A stretch of DNA of 64,000 nt from an uncultured Actinomycetes bacterium (lineage in GTDB: Bacteria > Actinomycetota > Actinomycetes > Mycobacteriales > SCTD01). The position numbers and the translations under genes are program-made. This document shows positions 10,859-27,083 of this stretch, in pieces. Each line of letters starts with the position of its first letter. The first letter of the stretch is position 1. The notes under the pieces were generated by a model, which did not search any database, was not told where the DNA came from, and saw nothing but the letters and a program-made list of their open reading frames with translations. The stretch covers positions 23,792 through 87,791 of the forward strand of contig CAWASE010000023.1 in assembly GCA_963784675.1 (NCBI GenBank), written 5' to 3'.

Positions 10859-12143
10859 GATCGGGCTCCTGTTCGGGGTCGGTAGAGGGGTTCGAGCGGC
10901 GGACGAGGACGGTGCCGATGCGGTTGCGCCGCCCCTTGGCGCTCTCCGCGACGAGCACGAGCCCGCCGAGCTCGACGGTCGCGCCCGGGATGGGGACGCG
11001 ACCGAGCACCATCGCCATCAGCCCGCCCACGGTCTCGACGTCGTCGTGCGGCAGGTCGACCCGGTAGAGCTGTTCGAGGTCTTCCACGGGCAGCCGGGCC
11101 GTGACGCGGTGCTGCCCCTCGCCGACGCCTTCGATCGGTGGCGCCTCGCGGTCGTACTCGTCCTGGATCTCGCCGACGATCTCTTCCAGCACGTCTTCCA
11201 TCGTCACCAGGCCGGCTGTGCCGCCGTACTCGTCGACCACCACCGCGATGTGGCCGAGGCTGCTCTGCATCTCGCGGAGCAGCTCGTCGACCGGCTTGGA
11301 CTCCGGGACGAACACCGGCTCCCGCATCGCTTCTTCGACCTTCTGCGCGCCGCCACCCTCGGTGCGCTCACGGCGTACGAGATCTTTGAGGTAGGTGACG
11401 CCGAGGACGTCGTCGGCGTTGTCGCCGACGACCGGGATCCGGCTGAAGCCGCTGCGCAGCGCGAGGTTCAGGGCCTGCCGGACGGTCTTGCCCCCCTCGA
11501 TCGTGACGATGTCGGTGCGCGGCACCATCACCTCGCGCACGATCGTGTCGCCCAGCTCGAAGACGCTGTTGATCATGTCGCGCTCCGACCGCTCGACGAC
11601 GCCCCGCTCCTGCGCCAGCTCGACCAGGTCGCGAAGCTCGGCCTCGGAGGAGAACGGGCCCTCGCGCAGACCCTTGCCCGGCGTCACGGCGTTGCCCAGC
11701 AGGATCAGCAGTCGCGGCAACGGCCCGAAGACCCGGGCCAGGGCCAGCGCGAGCCCGGCGCCCAGCAGGGCGACCCGTTCGGACTGCTGGCGCCCGAACG
11801 TGCGGGGGGCGACCCCCACCAGCACGTAGCTCACGACCGTCATGATCGCCACCGCCAGCACGACGGCCTCGGAGCCGTCGATGCGCGCCAGGCAGTAGGC
11901 GACGACGACGCCGACCGCCGACAGCTCGAAGACGGTGCGCAGCAGGAGCAGCAGGTTCAGCGACCGGGGCGGGTCGGCGAGCACCCGCTGCAGGCGCAGC
12001 GCTCCCGGGCGCTCGTCCCGGACGAGCTCCTCGACCCGCACGCGGGACACCCGGGCCAGCGCCGCCTCCAGACAGCCCAGGGCTCCCGCCAGCAGCACGA
12101 ACACGGCCGCGACGAGCAGGGGGACGACGTCGGTCACCGTCAC
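10851..12143 (-). CDS. Hemolysin/CNNM family protein (DUF21-CBS-CBS-CorC)
   Basis: N-terminal TMs, VREVMVPRTD, SGFSRIPV, VVVDEYGGTAGLVTMEDVLEEIVGEIQDEYD, ETVGGL. Confidence 0.93.
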   Translation of the reverse strand: MTVTDVVPLLVAAVFVLLAGALGCLEAALARVSRVRVEELVRDERPGALRLQRVLADPPRSLNLLLLLRTVFELSAVGVVVAYCLARIDGSEAVVLAVAIMTVVSYVLVGVAPRTFGRQQSERVALLGAGLALALARVFGPLPRLLILLGNAVTPGKGLREGPFSSEAELRDLVELAQERGVVERSERDMINSVFELGDTIVREVMVPRTDIVTIEGGKTVRQALNLALRSGFSRIPVVGDNADDVLGVTYLKDLVRRERTEGGGAQKVEEAMREPVFVPESKPVDELLREMQSSLGHIAVVVDEYGGTAGLVTMEDVLEEIVGEIQDEYDREAPPIEGVGEGQHRVTARLPVEDLEQLYRVDLPHDDVETVGGLMAMVLGRVPIPGATVELGGLVLVAESAKGRRNRIGTVLVRRSNPSTDPEQEPDRG

Positions 12144-20828: not shown

Positions 20829-22235
20829 TCAGCCCAGCAGGGTGAGGTCGAGCGAGAGCACGACCCCGCCGACGATCCCCAGCCCGATCGACGCGGCGGC
20901 AGCGGCCACGGCGCACAATGCGGCGATCGGCCGTACGGCGACCGGAGCGGCCTGCGCGGCTCCGGTGCGGTCGAAGACCGGGGCCAGCCAGCGCAGGTAG
21001 TAGACCAGGCTGATCACCGTGTTCACGGCTGCCACGGCGACCAGCCAGCCGAACCCGCCGTCCAGGGCAGCGCCGAAGACGGCCACCTTTCCGACGAAGA
21101 CCGCCGTCGGCGGCGTGCCGACCAGACCGAGCAGGAGAACCAGCAGCGACAGGCCGAGCCAGGCGCGTCCGGCGGCGAGTCCGCGGTAGTGGTCGATCCG
21201 GGTCAGCGCCGGCAGCGCCGCCACCACGGCGAAGGCCCCGATGTTCGTGACCGCGTACGCCGCCAGGTACAGCGCGAGGGCGGGCAGGGCGAGCTCGGTA
21301 CGGGAGGCCACCGCGACAGCCATCAGCAGGTAACCGGCCTGGCTCACCGTGGACCAGCCGAGCAGCCGGCGGACGTCCTGCTGGGCGAGCGCCGCAAGAT
21401 TGCCCACGGTCATGGTCAAGGCCGCCAGCACGGCGAGCAGCACCGGCCAGCGGACGACGGTGTCGGGGACCACGGACAGGACGCGGAAGGCGGCGAGCAG
21501 TCCGCCCACCTTGGGGACCGTGGTGAGGATCGCGGCCGCCCCGGACCGGGACCCCTCGGCGGCGTCCGGCACCCAGAAGTGACCCGGGACGAAGCCGCCC
21601 TTGAAGGCCAGGCCGGCCAGCAGCGCCACCACGCCGGCCGCGACGGCTCCCCGGTACGTCTGGTCGAGTGCGCGCAGGTCGGCGTAGCCCGTCCCCCCGG
21701 CGACGCCGGACAGCAGCACGACGCCGACCAGCATGGCGACCCCCAGGAACGCCCCGAGCAGGTAGGTCTTCAGCGCCGCCTCGCTGCCGGCCCGGTCGCG
21801 CGCCGCACCTGCCAGTCCGTAGAGAGGGACGCTGGCGAGCAGGTAGCCCACCGACAGGACCAGCAGATCGTTGCTGCCGGCGAGCACCTGGCTGCCGAGG
21901 ACGGCGAACAGCAGCAGGACGTAGTGCTCGGTCTCGCGCCGGTCTCCCGCCACCTGTTCCCCGACGATGCCGAGCAGCAGCAGACCGGCGAGGGCGCCGA
22001 CGATCCGGGCGGTGGCAGTCACTCCGTCGACGGCGAACGTGTCGTCGAAGACGAGCCGGTCGGCGCCGGCCAGCGCCGCCACGGAGGCGACCAGCGACAC
22101 CACGAGAACCGCGGCCGTGGCGAGGCGCGCCAGCCACTGCCGCGAGCGCGGCAGGAAGGAGCCGAGCAGCAGAACGCCGGTCGCACCGAGCAGCAGGACC
22201 AGCTCGGGCAGCAGGGCGACGGGGTCCTCGTTCAA
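20829..22235 (-). CDS. NuoN-like antiporter-type subunit
   Basis: [78 protein letters not shown]; TTG overlaps the nuoM-like stop. Confidence 0.9.
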
Positions 22236-23737
22236 CGACCCACCAGGTCGGCGACGGCCCGCGCCGACGGCTCGACCACGTCCAGCAGCGGCCTCGGCAG
22301 GATCCCGATCAGCACCGAGAGCGCCAGCAGCGGGACGACGCCGGCGAGCTCGCTCGGCCGCAGGTCGCGCACCTTGCCGGTGCTCGGACCGGGCGTGCCG
22401 AGCAGCATCCGCCCGATGGCCAGCAGGAACAGCGCGGCCGTGACGAGCAGCCCGAGCAGCGCCACGATGACCCCGACCGGCGCCGAGCCGAGCGAGCCTG
22501 CCAGGACCTGGAACTCGGCGACGAACCCGGACAGACCCGGTAGCCCGAGGCTCGCGAAGCAGGCGAGCCCGAACAGTCCGGCGAAGCGCGGCGCCTGCGG
22601 TCCGAGCCCCCCGTACTGCGACATCTCGTAGGTCCCGGCGCGGTCCTGCAGCACACCGGCCAGCAGGAAGAGCGCACCCGTGACGAGTCCGTGGCTGACC
22701 ATCTGCGTGACGGCACCGGTCAGCGCCACCGTCCGGGCCTCGGCATCGGTGCTGCCGAGCATCCCGGCTGCCCCGACCGCGAGCAGGACGTAGCCCATGT
22801 GCGCGACCGAGGTGTAGGCGACCATCCGCTTCAGGTCCGTCTGCGCCAGCGCCACCAGGGCTCCGTACAGCACCCCGACGGCGCCGATCACGACAGCGAC
22901 GACCGCCCAGGTGCGCCACGCGTCCGGCAGCATCGGCATCGCGATCCGCAGGAAGCCGTAGGTGCCCATCTTGAGCAGCACGCCGGCCAGGATCGCGGAG
23001 CCGACCGCCGGGGCGTCCGTGTGCGCGGGGGGCAGCCAGGTGTGGAAGGGGACCGTCGGCGTCTTCACGGCGAGGCCGATGCCGATCGCCAGCAGCGCCA
23101 GCCCCCCGGCCAGACCGCGTCCCTGCAGCGCGGGGTTGCGGGTCAGCTCGACCATGTCGAACGTGTGCGGCGACGAGCCGGCGAACAGCACCAGGAAGCC
23201 GACCAGCAGCGCCAGGCTGCCCAGGAACGTGTAGAGGAAGAACTTCAGCGCCGACCGCGCCGCCTGGCCGTGGCCCCAGCCGGCGATGACGAAGTACATG
23301 CCGACGATGGACAGGTCGAAGAAGACGAAGAACAGGATCAGGTCCAGGCTCACGAACACGCCCAGGCACATCGTCTCCAGGAACAGCAGCAGCGCCGCGA
23401 AGGTGCGTGGCCGCAGCTGTTCCCGCCAGGCATAGAGCGCACAGCAGAAGAACAGGCCCGCGGTCAGCAGCACGAGCGGCAGCGACAGTCCGTCGACGCC
23501 GACGTGGTAGCTGCTGCCGACCGACGGGATCCAGGTCAGCGTGCGTTCGTGGGCGAAGCCACCGACGAGTCCCGCCCGGGGTTCGTAGGTGATCCAGAGC
23601 CCGAGCGCCAGGGCCAGCTCGGCCCCCGTGACGCCGATGAGCACGGCGCGGGCGGCGACGTCGGGAAGCCCGGGCACGGCGACCAGGACGACGGCCGTCA
23701 GCAGGGGAAGGAAGACCAGCAGGTCGAGCACGCTCAC
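22232..23737 (-). CDS. NuoM-like antiporter-type subunit
   Basis: [77 protein letters not shown]. Reads FFVFFD where canonical NuoM has FYxFWE. Confidence 0.92.
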
Positions 23738-24230
23738 CTCATCAGCAGCAGGAGCAGGGTGGACACGGCAAGCACGGCCGCAGCCTGGCCGTAGTACTGG
23801 TGCAGCTGTCCGGTCTGCAACCGACGGGCGCCCGCACCGCCGCGCGCGACCAGGCGGGTCACCGCGGCGACGGTCCCGTCGAGGCCGCCGAGGTCGAACC
23901 GCGCGGAGGCGCGAGCGGCGCTCGTGGTGGCGCGCGCGGTCCCGACCACCGCGCCGTCGAGGACGCCGTCGTCGCCTCGAGCGAGTGCCCCGGACACCGA
24001 GCGGACGCGGCGCGCGACCCGTTCGACGGAGCCGTCGACGATCTGGTCGTCGAAGACGGCCAGGGCCTGCGACAGCGCCAGCACCGGGCGCACGGCCACG
24101 GCGTGCGCGGCCTGCTCCATCAGCAGCCACCGGCTGAGCAGGGGGACGCGCGCCCTGCGTTCCCAGCGCGTCGTCGCGACGAGGACGACCAGGGCGAGCA
24201 CCGCCGACAGCAGCAGCCCGAGGACGCAGC
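23734..24230 (-). pseudogene. NuoL-like subunit, C-terminal fragment only (5' part deleted)
   Basis: FDDQIVDGSV...DDGVLDGAV...FDLGGLDGTV...ARRLQTGQLHQYY, the typical NuoL C-terminal helix/TM; frame breaks at the IS110 junction. Confidence 0.8.
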
Positions 24231-24233
24231 GCC

Positions 24234-24716
24234 GCCCGCTGGCGTCAGCTCAACGAGGACCTGGAGCGCGTCGAGGCCGACATGACCCGGCTGCTCGCGC
24301 TGACCGACGGTCAGGTCCTGACCAGCCTGCCGGGGGTCAAGGACGTCCGGGCGGCCTGCTTCAGCGCCTTCACCCTGCCGATCGACCGGTTCCCGACCGC
24401 CGAGCACCTCTACTCCGCGACCGGGCTCGCGCCCGCCCGCTACGAATCTTCAAGCCTGCGCAAGCGCGGCGGCATCAGCCGGCAGGGGCTGCCCGAGCAC
24501 CGCGACGCCCTGATGGGCATCGCCTGGGGCCTGAGCCAGTACTGCGGCCCGTTCATCGACCGAGAGGAGCAGCTCCGCGCCCGACACATGAGCCCGATCC
24601 AGGTCCGGGTGTCCCTGGCCCGACACGCCTGCCGGCTCCTGTTCCGGATGCTCACGACCCAGGAACCGTTCGACGAACAGCGTTACCGTCGAGCCCGGCA
24701 CCAGGTCAGGCAGTGA
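24234..24716 (+). pseudogene. IS110 transposase, C-terminal (Transposase_20-like) part; DEDD N-terminal domain missing
   Basis: ARWRQLNEDLERVEADMTRLL...LTSLPGV...IDRFPTAEHLYSATGLAPARYESSS...GISRQG...RDAL. Confidence 0.85.
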
Positions 24717-24845
24717 CGGCGCTCCCGCTATGCCGCACGACGGCGCAACCTAGCTAGCCGCCTGCCTGACCTGGGGCCACCTGACGGCGAAGACGAGAGC
24801 CTGCCGCACGACGGCGACTGATCAGCCTGCCGCACCCGGCCCCAC
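24701..24845 (+). ncRNA. Putative IS110 bridge/seek RNA (two stem-internal-loop modules)
   Basis: 13-bp stem 24701-24713/24762-24774 and 7-bp stem 24772-24778/24838-24844, each enclosing the module TGACGGCG-[variable]-TGCCGCACGACGGCG-[variable]-GCCGC. Confidence 0.65.
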
Positions 24846-24945
24846 TCGCCGAGCAACACCACAACGCTCAGCCGAGCCCGACACCACCAGCGGTCCCGGG
24901 CCGATGACCCACGCCCACGAACGACTTGACGCCGACAGGTGAGAG

Positions 24946-25491
24946 CTAGACCAGGAACGCCAGCGGCATGTGCACCACGTTCCAGCCGGCGCCCTGAGCA
25001 GCCGCGACCGCGCGCACGTCCAGGCTCTGCGCCACGACCGCCGGCGGGATCAGGGCGAACATCAGCGGCAGCTCATACGCCAGCGCAAGGGCCAGGAACC
25101 GGTAGCCGCCGACGAGCGCGAGCGTGCTCGCACCACCCCAGCCGAGCAACCACACCAGTGCCCAGACGCAGACGTCGAGCGCGTTGAACCAGACGACGCC
25201 CGCGGGCAGGTCGGCGACGACCTGACCTCCGATCGGGACGACCGCCATCATCAGGGCCGCGACGACGAGCAGGCCACCGCCACCGAGCCGCCACAGCAAG
25301 GCATCCGGGGCGGGGGTCGTCCGTCGACGTTGCACGAGCAGCCGGGCGACGTCAGGCCAGGGCGACAGCCCGGCCCGGGACGGAGGCTGACCTGCAGCGC
25401 GGGCGACGAGGTAGCGGTCCCCCACGGCGGCCGCCGTCGCCAGCACCGCCAGCGCCAGCAGGGCCGCAGGGGCGAGGAGCAGCTCAGGCAT
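24946..25491 (-). pseudogene. NuoH-like subunit truncated at 181 aa by the IS insertion
   Basis: RLLVQRRRTTPAPDALLW, DLPAGVVWF, LVGGYRFLALALAYELPLMF, AAQ..WNVVHMPLAFLV; the stop is created at the IS junction. Confidence 0.85.
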
Positions 25492-26596
25492 GCGCTCCCA
25501 CCCGTTCCAGGCAGGGCCCGAACGCCGCGACGACGGGAGCCGCGGACGCCAGGTCGAGTCCGGTGACGGCAACCTGAAGCTCGTGCAGCGACGCTCGCGG
25601 CACAGCCGCACGGTCCCGGACGGCAGCCACCAGCGCGTCCAGGTGAGCGACGAGGTCCCGCCCAGCAGGTCCGGGCAGTCCACGCAACGACCAGCGGAGC
25701 ACGCGCGCCTGCTCGGTCCGGCGCAGCAGGGCCTCGACCGCCGTCGCCTCGCCCTCACGGCGCGCCCGGCGCCCTCGCCGCGCGAGATCGTCCCAACCGG
25801 CCGCCGCCAGCAGCACCAGCAACGCGTCGAGCGGACCGGTCGGGTCTGCCTGCATTGGAGGCTGGTCCAGCACCTGCGCCGAGACTTCGGTCAGCACGTC
25901 ACCGGACAGCGTCACGGTCAGCTCGAGGCCGGCCGGCCAGCCGGGCAGGATCGGGCCGACCGTCTGTCGCAGCCCCTCGAGCCGGAGGCCGTCGCGGTCC
26001 GGGACGCGGTCAGCCATCACCAGGCCGCCGGGCAAGGACATGTCCATGCCGGCCATGTCGTGGTCCATCCCAGACATGTCCATGTCGTGGTCCATCCCAG
26101 ACATGTCCATGTCGTGGTCCATGCCGGCCATGTCCATGCCAGGCATGTCGTGGTCCATGCCAGCCATGTCCATGCCAGGCATGTCGTGGTCCATGCCGGC
26201 CGTGTCCATGCCGGCCGGGTCGTGGCTGTCCGGGCCAGCACCGTCGCCACCGCGATCGCGGGCGTCGTCGTGCTGCGCCCGCAGGTCGGCCAGCCGCTGC
26301 CGGGCCTGGTCGAGCCCGGCCTCGAGCCGCCCGACGTCGTCGACAAGTGCCAGGGCTCGCGGGCCCGGCATCGCCTCATAGGCGGCGTCCACGCGTCGGC
26401 TGAGCTCAGGACCCGCCGGTCCGCACTCCAGCAGCACGTCGGCCGCAGCAGGCGACAACGCTCGCGGCCAGCCACGCACGTCCAGCGCATCCTCGGCGGC
26501 CCGGTACACGTTGGCGTGGCCAGGGACAGGCACGAGCAGCACGTGCGGCCGCCGCACAGCAGCGGCGAGCAACCGGGCGGCCAGCGTGCGACTCAC
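25484..26596 (-). CDS. Degenerate NuoB-like / Met-His-Asp repeat / NuoD-N-like fusion protein
   Basis: SPAAADVLLECG...VDAAYEAMPGPR resembles NuoB SPRQADLMIVAG...VYDQMPEPK without the Fe-S Cys set; central MDHDM repeats; VGPILPGWPAGLELTVTLSGDVL resembles NuoD GPQHP...LRLILELDGE. Confidence 0.75.
   Translation of the reverse strand: MSRTLAARLLAAAVRRPHVLLVPVPGHANVYRAAEDALDVRGWPRALSPAAADVLLECGPAGPELSRRVDAAYEAMPGPRALALVDDVGRLEAGLDQARQRLADLRAQHDDARDRGGDGAGPDSHDPAGMDTAGMDHDMPGMDMAGMDHDMPGMDMAGMDHDMDMSGMDHDMDMSGMDHDMAGMDMSLPGGLVMADRVPDRDGLRLEGLRQTVGPILPGWPAGLELTVTLSGDVLTEVSAQVLDQPPMQADPTGPLDALLVLLAAAGWDDLARRGRRARREGEATAVEALLRRTEQARVLRWSLRGLPGPAGRDLVAHLDALVAAVRDRAAVPRASLHELQVAVTGLDLASAAPVVAAFGPCLERVGAHA
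26038..26217 (-). repeat. Coding tandem repeats GMDHDM / GMDM (15-36 bp units)
   Basis: ccatgtcgtggtccat-type units; the peptide contains 19 Met and five MDHDM motifs. Confidence 0.95.
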
Positions 26597-26600
26597 GTCG

Positions 26601-26951
26601 TCAGGACCATCGGAACGCGCCCTCGCGCCAGGCGTAGACCACGCCGGCGAGCAACAGCGCCAGGAAGGCGAACATCTCGATCACGGCGGACGCCCCGACC
26701 GAGGACACGACCACCGACCACGGGTACATGAAGAGCATCTCCAGGTCGAAGGCCAGGAAGACCAGGCTCATCGCATACCAGCGCGCATGGAAGCGGTGCA
26801 GGGCATGCTCGGTCGCCGCGGTCCCACCGGCCCACGGGTCGGCCACCAGAGGGGCCTGATGGATGCTGACCCGCCGCGACAGACCGTACAGCCCGACCAC
26901 CCCCAGACAGGCGAGCACCAGCAGCAGCACGGCACCTCCGTACGCACTCAC
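26601..26951 (-). CDS. NuoA-like subunit
   Basis: RFHARWYAMSLVFLAFDLEMLFMYPW...YAWREGAFRWS; 3 TM; GTG start. Confidence 0.9.
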   Translation of the reverse strand: MSAYGGAVLLLVLACLGVVGLYGLSRRVSIHQAPLVADPWAGGTAATEHALHRFHARWYAMSLVFLAFDLEMLFMYPWSVVVSSVGASAVIEMFAFLALLLAGVVYAWREGAFRWS

Positions 26952-26981
26952 GTCCCAGCCCCCTCTGCTTCCCTCTACCCC

Positions 26982-26996
26982 TACCCCCCAGGGGTT
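26982..26996. promoter_or_regulatory. Putative CsoR/RicR-type copper-responsive operator
   Basis: TACCCCCCAGGGGTT = ACCCC-N3-GGGGT palindrome about 30 nt upstream of nuoA-like; one mismatch to TACCCCnnnGGGGTA. Confidence 0.65.
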
Positions 26997-27083
26997 CTCC
27001 AACGCTCTCGGACGAAAATGACCCCGAGCGGTGTTTGCTCAGCAGGCGAGGTCGCCGGTCCTCGCCACGTCGAGAGGGACCTG

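Follow-up and report, generated by a model that had tools for sequence, protein, structure and literature searches.

Recombination guided by bridge or seek RNAs has been known since 2024 from insertion sequences (IS) of the IS110 family (Durrant et al., PMC11208160; Hiraizumi et al., PMC11208158; Siddiquee et al., PMC11187229). In IS621, as described in PMC11208160, the left guides of the RNA pair to the bottom DNA strand and the right guides to the top strand, and the core, CT, is contained in all four guides; according to PMC11208158, bases 3' of the right target guide, the handshake guides, pair with the left half of the donor after strand exchange. In IS1111 elements the guide RNA is reported to lie 3' of the gene (PMC11208160; PMC11187229), and since both papers acknowledge exceptions in RNA location, a departure from the usual place is not unprecedented. 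Here we analysed a stretch of 64,000 nucleotides (nt) from an uncultured Actinomycetes bacterium (the window; GenBank assembly GCA_963784675.1, contig CAWASE010000023.1, positions 23,792 to 87,791 of the forward strand), which contains the 3' part of an IS110-family element. Judged by the covariation of stems and guides among relatives, window nucleotides 24701-24844 very probably constitute the gene for a bridge (seek) RNA of about 145 nt belonging to this element.

The location of the RNA sets the locus apart from IS621, whose RNA lies in the left end, upstream of the transposase gene: here it lies downstream and overlaps the last codons. In this it resembles the IS1111 elements with described seekRNAs (ISEc11, ISKpn4, ISPa11 and ISPst6; PMC11187229) and also ISPpu9, an IS110-family element with the small-RNA gene ssr9 (RNA Ssr9) downstream of the transposase gene (PMC12288879). 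Unlike our element, ISPpu9 is described as targeting Pseudomonas REP sequences and as having solo ssr9 copies (PMC12288879), whereas a search of the whole genome with a covariance model of the first module, described below, found no solo modules. A bridge or seek RNA in the right end, composed of two duplicated modules of which the first would bind the target and the second the donor, was the original prediction, made from the letters of the DNA alone; natural variation in relatives supports the location as well as both assignments. The modules and their hairpins, in window coordinates, are:

24701 to 24774, plus strand: module 1, the putative target-binding loop, with an outer stem (24701-24713 / 24762-24774) and inner CGGC/GCCG pairing (24717-24720 / 24757-24760)
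24772 to 24844, plus strand: module 2, the putative donor-binding loop, with an outer stem (24772-24778 / 24838-24844) and inner CGGC/GCCG pairing (24785-24788 / 24829-24832)
24731 to 24745, plus strand: hairpin 1 (UGCCG-CACGA-CGGCG), part of the scaffold, paired in 99.7% of cells of the covariation test (helix 2)
24802 to 24816, plus strand: hairpin 2, with the same sequence as hairpin 1 (helix 4 of the covariation test)

The two hairpins are formed by a 15-mer, TGCCGCACGACGGCG, which with up to one mismatch was matched three times in the window (the third match at 11039, minus strand) versus 0.18 expected, and none of 100 shuffles gave three matches. A second repeat, TGACGGCG, is found at 24714-24721 and 24782-24789, and the stop codon TGA of the transposase (24714-24716) lies inside its first copy, so that the RNA overlaps the stop as had been proposed. 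The arms of outer stem 1 (24697-24713 / 24762-24778; 17 nt, 94% complementary) contain a perfect core of 13 base pairs (bp), CCAGGTCAGGCAG/CTGCCTGACCTGG; outer stem 2 pairs TGGGGCC at 24772-24778 with GGCCCCA at 24838-24844 (7 bp). The description of these repeats and of stems of 13 and 7 bp had been correct throughout, coordinates included. Folding of the RNA of 24695-24850 reproduced module 1 as drawn (z = -2.3). A 12-nt inverted repeat, 92% complementary, connects the 5' side of module 2 with the right end past TTGA (24778-24789 / 24930-24941); it was used by the single-sequence fold and was not seen by eye in the tails of relatives, where no formal test was made.

To follow the structure through evolution, 80 loci with 57-85% protein identity were collected from species-representative genomes, mostly of Actinomycetota, giving 83 loci in total (designated L with a number; transposase identity 57-100%). 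By a pattern search, 77 of the 83 carry the two modules downstream of the gene. Two of the six misses were contig ends, two had foreign DNA inside module 2, one had a variant stem that is visible by eye, and one was misplaced by a frameshift. In the two loci with foreign DNA (L023 and L025, two copies in one metagenome-assembled genome, MAG; from about 3815 onward), module 2 is broken after CCTAATC by unrelated DNA carrying a ...CTCGATAGGTC... motif, possibly an insertion nested within the donor guide.

Covariation was tested on the structure of module 1 and the inner parts of module 2 in 58 distinct RNA sequences. Pairing was retained in 94.7% of cells, with 13 of the 32 pairs changed on both sides (69 cells); none of 500 shuffles reached any of the five covariation measures, and slid controls were 31-60% paired. 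The outer and inner helices of module 1 showed compensatory changes in 10 of 18 pairs, and RNAalifold independently recovered the same helices. Because the length of module 2's outer stem is variable and MAFFT misaligned it, this stem was scored sequence by sequence: at least 6 contiguous bp were present in 50 of 58 relatives, from 31 distinct arm pairs, e.g. TGGGGCC/GGCCCCA, GCCACTC/GAGTGGC and GCCGCTGC/GCAGCGGC. The median was 7 bp for a module's own arms versus 6 bp for cross-pairs, a weak statistic in which many arms are alike, and the case for this stem therefore rests on the clearly different arm pairs.

When a covariance model was built on module 1 of 52 relatives only, it recovered module 2 of the window as its second-best match (22.9 bits, E 9e-4; the next match had 15.6 bits), and in the whole genome it found the two modules of each of three copies plus one weak unrelated match (19.6 bits, E 0.44). 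Of the 58 loci of relatives, 5 gave a full-length match to module 2 (E up to 0.013) and about 26 others a match to the hairpin alone (E 0.07-0.77); with so few full-length matches, the modules are alike in scaffold, not throughout. The common scaffold reads ACGGCG-N12-UGCCG-loop-CGGCG-N11-GCCG. The proposed origin by internal duplication fits the shared scaffold, but in most relatives the modules resemble each other only in part; a tandem duplication is a reasonable interpretation, and common protein-binding constraints would yield the same two-module picture.

The loops of the two modules provide four guide strands (L1 and R1 in module 1, L2 and R2 in module 2), which we compared with the element ends and their flanks:

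24721 to 24730, plus strand: L1, the predicted left target guide, GCTCCCG-CT-A; CCCG (24724-24727) equals target positions -4 to -1, CT (24728-24729) the core and A (24730) position +1
24746 to 24756, plus strand: R1, the predicted right target guide, CAACCT-AG-CTA; CT (24750-24751) would pair with positions +2 and +1, AG (24752-24753) with the core CT
24790 to 24801, plus strand: L2, the predicted guide for the left donor, AAGACGAGAG-C-C, in which GAGAGC (24795-24800) is identical to the right end GAGAG and the core C after it
24817 to 24827, plus strand: R2, the predicted right donor guide, ACTGATC-AG-CC, whose reverse complement GG-CT-GAT-C-AG compares with the core and left end CT-GATAG
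24941 to 24947, plus strand: the right end of the element, the left donor GAGAG (24941-24945) followed by the core CT (24946-24947), as placed by the copies L077-L080
24948 to 24949, plus strand: AG, with which the right target begins, derived from the host as judged from an empty-site orthologue (L106) and the frames of flanking genes

The complete element is 1547 bp long and is present in the same genome as two full-length copies, at L002:676-2222 and L003:1502-3047 (minus strand), the ends and flanks of which fit the loop strands. The original prediction, made with neither copy in view, had let intact copies begin with about GCTGATC after left flanks resembling CCC(GC); the two copies begin with GCTGATAG, after CGCCC|GC and ATCCT|GC, respectively. 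The covariation that it implied was also found: beyond the stems, L1 tracks the left flanks, L2 the right end and R1 the junction (CTAG or CTAA).

L1 has the sense of the top strand and would thus pair with the bottom strand. It was tested on 60 independent insertions with 32 distinct L1 sequences; duplicates, loci with flanks shorter than 10 nt and five loci of a sub-branch with a left end about 190 nt further out were excluded beforehand. From position -1 to -7 before the CT, the fractions of matches between L1 and the left flank were.98,.93,.88,.63,.25,.15 and.30, versus.92,.44,.54,.26,.23,.17 and.26 in cross-pair controls, and the score was reached in none of 10000 permutations. In the sub-branch (L028, L037, L040, L046, L056, L067 and L068; it includes Kribbella, Agromyces, Glaciibacter, Jiangella and a Propionibacteriaceae MAG), about 190 extra conserved nt separate the true left end (xCTGATAG) from the transposase start, which in our element is only 66 nt from the left end. 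An internal GGCTGATGATGG within this stretch resembles an element end; it was considered as the left end of the sub-branch and rejected, the true one lying about 190 nt further out.

On the right side, R1 agreed with 62 junctions at position +1 in a fraction of 1.0 and at +2 of.97 (controls 1.0 and.67), with control level from +3 on; R1 variants with CTTAG were found at CTAA junctions (L041-L044, L072 and L075). The original observation that CTAGC at 24750-24754 is the reverse complement of the junction GCTAG at 24945-24949 was accurate, as was that of GAGAGC both in L2 (24795-24800) and at the end (24941-24946). The bases of R1 that follow, CT(A) at 24754-24756, are complementary to the last bases of the left donor, in the manner of handshake guides. 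In relatives, the 3' CT(T/A) of R1 complements donors ending in ...AG, and TT(T) is found where the donor ends in ...AA, as in the clade of L077, where the guide TAGTTT accompanies the end GAAGAA-CT-AG; this is one evolutionary event only.

In module 2, L2 was compared with the right end in 27 distinct combinations and matched it in fractions of at least.96 from the core C to -5, versus.34-.74 in cross-pairs at -1, -3 and -5; each of the end types GAGAG, GAAAG and GAAGAA occurs with identical letters in L2. The core is present in L1, R1 and R2, and L2 has its first base only.

The extent of the core was defined by four copies of one element in one genome (L077-L080), whose left junctions read G|CT in three cases and A|CT in one, while all right junctions read GAAGAA|CT. 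Base -1 is therefore contributed by the target at the left junction and by the donor at the right one; beyond the CT, the left junction continues with GATAG and the right junction with AG, and since the junctions differ on either side of CT, the shared stretch is CT. In L003 the element has inserted at the stop codon of a gene on the minus strand (...IQL*). Of 13 related genes of the genus, 12 end at the same point, and the closest orthologue (87% identity) reads ...CTAG|CGCTGGATGG without the element, i.e., an empty site. That the AG is host-derived follows from this gene, which would lose its stop if CT-AG did not come from the target, and from flanking genes, which end in one particular frame. 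Judged from these junctions, the core is CT and the target NNNG-CT-AG, with the AG from the target. The GC core of the original prediction, flagged there as uncertain, has to be abandoned: its G closes both the left target and the left donor, and the 'GC' with which the right strands end stems from the core complement AG and a subsequent C. The statement that all four variable strands end in GC holds only if the next bases, TA in module 1 and C in module 2, are omitted.

The frames of the flanking genes were followed through coding-type open reading frames (ORFs), defined as at least 60 codons with a G+C content at third codon positions (GC3) of at least 0.8 and GC3 > GC1 > GC2. On the left, such an ORF ended in the frame of the junction TGA in 21 of 56 flanks and in the other two frames in 0 and 0; on the right, 20 of 52 ended in the frame of the junction TAG and 2 and 2 in the other frames. 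At least one 'gene end' of this set, at the nuoH-like gene of the window, is an interrupted gene. With its left end CT-GA-TAG the element offers a TGA in frame with the TAG that is lost, and CTAG is retained at the right junction, so insertion on a TAG stop, in either orientation, keeps both reading frames closed, by design or by coincidence. In L009, L041, L053, L066, L070, L072 and L083, coding-type ORFs end in the stop frame on both sides, which suggests convergent genes whose stop codons overlapped in one CTAG at the empty site. In the genome (73% G+C), CTAG is about ten times under-represented (965 sites vs 9695 expected), and 29% of these sites coincide, on one side or both, with the end of a coding-type ORF. 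Of the 364 GCTAG sites of this genome, a coding-type ORF terminates in the stop frame on the left side of 64 and on the right side of 66, roughly half the proportion found for insertions; this compares one genome with many, and later selection could explain the difference. A full-text literature search found no report of CTAG or stop-codon targeting by the IS110 family; an NCTAGN target is reported for IS481-family elements (PMC2516522).

A further signal of the right end would belong to the circular form of the element:

24926 to 24931, plus strand: TTGACG, a -35-like hexamer 15 nt before 24946, as noted in the original prediction, which would face the left end in the circle junction

Among 50 distinct right ends, 47 have TTGACN 13 nt ahead of the core (the distance is 14 nt in the window copy). 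This fits the -35 box of a junction promoter, by analogy with the one described for the IS110/IS1111 family (PMC11187229); no convincing -10 was seen next to it.

Together, these data suggest the following mechanism. The RNA would be made, probably by cleavage from the transposase transcript's 3' end, then bind the recombinase, and the element would circularise, TTGACN presumably serving as a promoter element of the circle junction. By analogy with IS621, a tetramer of the recombinase, with its DEDD domain and serine, would hold both loops. In loop 1, L1 has the sense of the left target and core, and R1 complements the core and right target and then the end of the left half of the donor; in loop 2, L2 has the sense of the right end and first core base, and R2 complements the core and left end. 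The loops would pair with the circle junction ...GAGAG-CT-GATAG... and the target NNNG-CT-AG, with strand exchange at the CT core.

Several observations weigh against the interpretation of 24701-24844 as a bridge RNA gene, and they are considered here together with the alternatives. The guides are short, with matches that reach no further than -4 on the left side and +2 on the right, and neither the variable 5' bases of L1 past -4 nor the conserved CAACC of R1 found a match among the sequences tested. Junctions deviating from the guides exist: L060 has CTAC and L064 CTAT where the guide predicts CTAA, and L005 carries AT instead of the core at its right end. R2 is one base longer than the left end, the additional base in relatives being C, T or G, and L2 ends in a C opposite the core T, a mismatch. 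A search of 24000-25300 against Rfam 15 gave no family match, the best hit being an unrelated miRNA model (18.4 bits, E 0.76), and no promoters or terminators were predicted in 24400-25000. Contigs from four soil metatranscriptome runs (X1, X4, X5 and X7) align with 24300-24849 and 24872-24949 at 85-99% likeness, and thus cover relatives of the 3' end of the gene and of both modules; they are no proof of transcription, ends or strand. Finally, at the target of the window copy CT-AG would read GTC TAG in frame in nuoH, where orthologues (73-76% identity) read GA-AG. Because an in-frame TAG would result, the window copy cannot have entered an intact nuoH at a CT-AG site; the original caution that a GC core would have placed a stop in nuoH thus applies equally to a CT core with AG behind it. 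This insertion either tolerated a mismatch in the core or has a more complex history.

Among the alternatives, an RNA that is real and seeks the target only, with module 2 as a structural or protein-binding duplicate and the ends recognised by protein, would account for the extra base of R2 and the mismatch of L2 at the second core base. Module 2 and the ends are also nearly constant, so that their covariation draws on few events, namely the clades with GAGAG, GAAAG and GAAGAA. Each of these three end variants is nevertheless accompanied by a matching L2, R2 of L071 lacks the extra base and matches CTGATAG throughout, and the strand senses of module 2 mirror those of loop 1 and of IS621 as described in PMC11208160; we regard this alternative as improbable.

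The empty promoter and terminator scan, and metatranscriptome contigs that do not prove a transcript, would equally be expected if the repeats were signals at the level of DNA (subterminal recombinase binding, replication or packaging) without any RNA gene. Such signals would hardly explain why the stems stay paired through double changes, which a protein site in duplex DNA does not require, nor could an internal site explain the covariation of L1 with flanks 1.3 kb away; the left end, moreover, has no matching repeats. This explanation is very unlikely in our estimation. The least credible of the three is an ordinary structured 3' untranslated region or terminator of the transposase mRNA whose matches to ends and flanks arose by chance. 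Within the window alone, matches of 5-6 nt in a genome of 73% G+C might be viewed in this way; it is contradicted by the permutation tests of L1, by the cross-pair controls of R1 and of module 2, by the lack of a T-run, and by loop-based predictions that came true in copies unseen when they were made. A bridge (seek) RNA with a target loop and a donor loop remains our preferred interpretation.

The copy in the window and its surroundings comprise the following features:

24225 to 24947, plus strand: a 5'-truncated copy of the IS110-family element, covering element positions of about 823-1547, with the left break at about 24222-24225
24228 to 24716, plus strand: the C-terminal 163 codons of the transposase (residues 253-415) with the stop TGA at 24714-24716 (Pfam Transposase_20, E 8.7e-14)
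24946 to 25758, minus strand: the N-terminal part of a nuoH-like gene, closed by the TAG of the junction CTAG (Pfam NADHdh, 13-180 of 298; orthologues continue)
23734 to 24201, minus strand: an ORF adjoining the broken left side of the element, with 0 Pfam families

Window positions 24225-24949 recur with 100% identity within two other places of the genome (including L002:1498-2222), and the window ORF equals residues 253-415 of the full-length transposase P0001 at 100% (tblastn), the DEDD domain being absent from this copy. Nucleotides 24701-24844 are very probably a true bridge/seek RNA gene, carried by a defunct copy of the element. From its translation, ORF 23734-24201 looks like the C-terminal tail of a NuoL-type subunit; with a part of nuoH abutting the right side and this NuoL-like tail the broken left side, a later deletion would have taken the 5' half of the element plus host DNA. 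No empty site could be given for the window copy, as its left side is deleted and nuoH orthologues are only 73-76% identical and lack CT-AG, nor for the L002 insertion, where matches in relatives begin at query base 103 or later and leave the junction uncovered. The element plus the deletion interrupt a nuo-like gene row on the minus strand of the window (20829-27002). It runs from a nuoA-like ORF (26601-27002) over an ORF with GMDHDM-type repeats (25484-26596) to the nuoH N-terminus (24946-25758), and continues directly with the NuoL-like tail (23734-24201) and two long membrane-protein ORFs; names other than nuoH were given from translations.

The two full-length copies are 97.7% alike, and an intact transposase of 415 amino acids (P0001) is encoded in L002 only, since a 1-nt deletion at element position 379 shifts the frame in the L003 copy (contig C19). 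Of the 36 differences between the two, 35 lie within the first 1050 nt, and the 3' 500 nt, including the RNA gene, differ in one base, a mosaic pattern. P0001 combines PF01548 (DEDD RuvC-like, N-terminal; E 3.7e-11) with PF02371 (C-terminal Tnp domain) and scores 142.7 bits, just above the cut-off of 140, with NCBIfam NF033542, 'IS110 family RNA-guided transposase'. It aligns to the solved recombinases of IS621 and ISCro4 (E about 1e-4), with YES(S) opposite YESG of IS621 (8wt6; aligned residues 198-323), and by count along the printed alignment S327 would correspond to the catalytic S241 of IS621; D19, E71, D115, D118 and S327 are invariant in 14 relatives. P0001 has more than 2000 homologues at E up to 1e-20; a tblastn search of plasmids for a named IS returned generic labels only ('IS110 family transposase'). 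At least five other, different DEDD transposase genes of the IS110 family were seen in the genome (e.g. C19:389383-389856, C8:47764-51165, C7:114-593 and C24:3527-3901), none with the RNA module modelled here.

Compared with IS621 (structures 8wt6-8wt9), the locus shares a recombinase with DEDD and Ser, two simple internal loops with the target loop 5' of the donor loop, the senses of the guide strands (L1 and L2 in top-strand sense, R1 and R2 as top-strand complements), the CT core, handshake-type bases 3' of the right target guide and a -35-like box near the right end. It differs in a protein of 415 versus 326-328 amino acids with similarity at E 1e-4 only, in shorter guides (4+2+2 bp of target), in one scaffold sequence for both loops, and in a left donor guide that mismatches the second core base. 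With IS1111 elements, as described in PMC11187229, it has in common that both target strands are matched over short stretches, which overlap within the target, and that there is no target duplication beyond the core. In contrast, the order of guides is reversed, as in ISEc11, ISKpn4 and ISPa11 the top-strand complement is described as lying 5' of the bottom-strand complement, and the transposase is about 75 amino acids longer than the approximately 340 reported there (PMC11187229). The hallmark of IS1111, subterminal inverted repeats of 7-17 bp, was not found: between the first and last 45 nt of eight elements the best run was 0-7 nt, and wherever there was a run, shuffles matched it in 23-179 of 200.

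From these comparisons a hypothesis may be put forward, which we consider possible rather than probable: the locus would represent a distinct third layout of bridge recombinases, with the RNA at the 3' side, the topology of IS621, two copies of one scaffold module as a living trace of the tandem duplication by which two-loop bridge RNAs arose, and minimal guides (4+2+2 bp) for the rare palindrome CTAG at TAG stops, making insertions near-harmless by design. If this is true, the upstream gene would receive a new TGA in frame from the left end CT-GA-TAG, and a convergent gene downstream would retain CTAG at the right junction.

The biology of RNA-guided transposition in this family is already known in principle; what is new is an actinobacterial branch, to our knowledge undescribed, that tends to land on TAG stop codons and some of whose features cross the divide between IS110 and IS1111. 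The series of loci blurs the published split between IS110, with its 5' RNA, and IS1111, with a 3' RNA, long subterminal repeats and the opposite order of guides. Programmable recombinases based on bridge and seek RNAs are being actively developed, and in this natural series (about 60 independent insertions and 32 variants of the target guide) the core, the bases that are read and the handshake-like bases can be read from genomes. For annotation, the 3' 230 nt of such elements are to be treated as a gene and not as spacer, and the CTAG at the right junction as half host.

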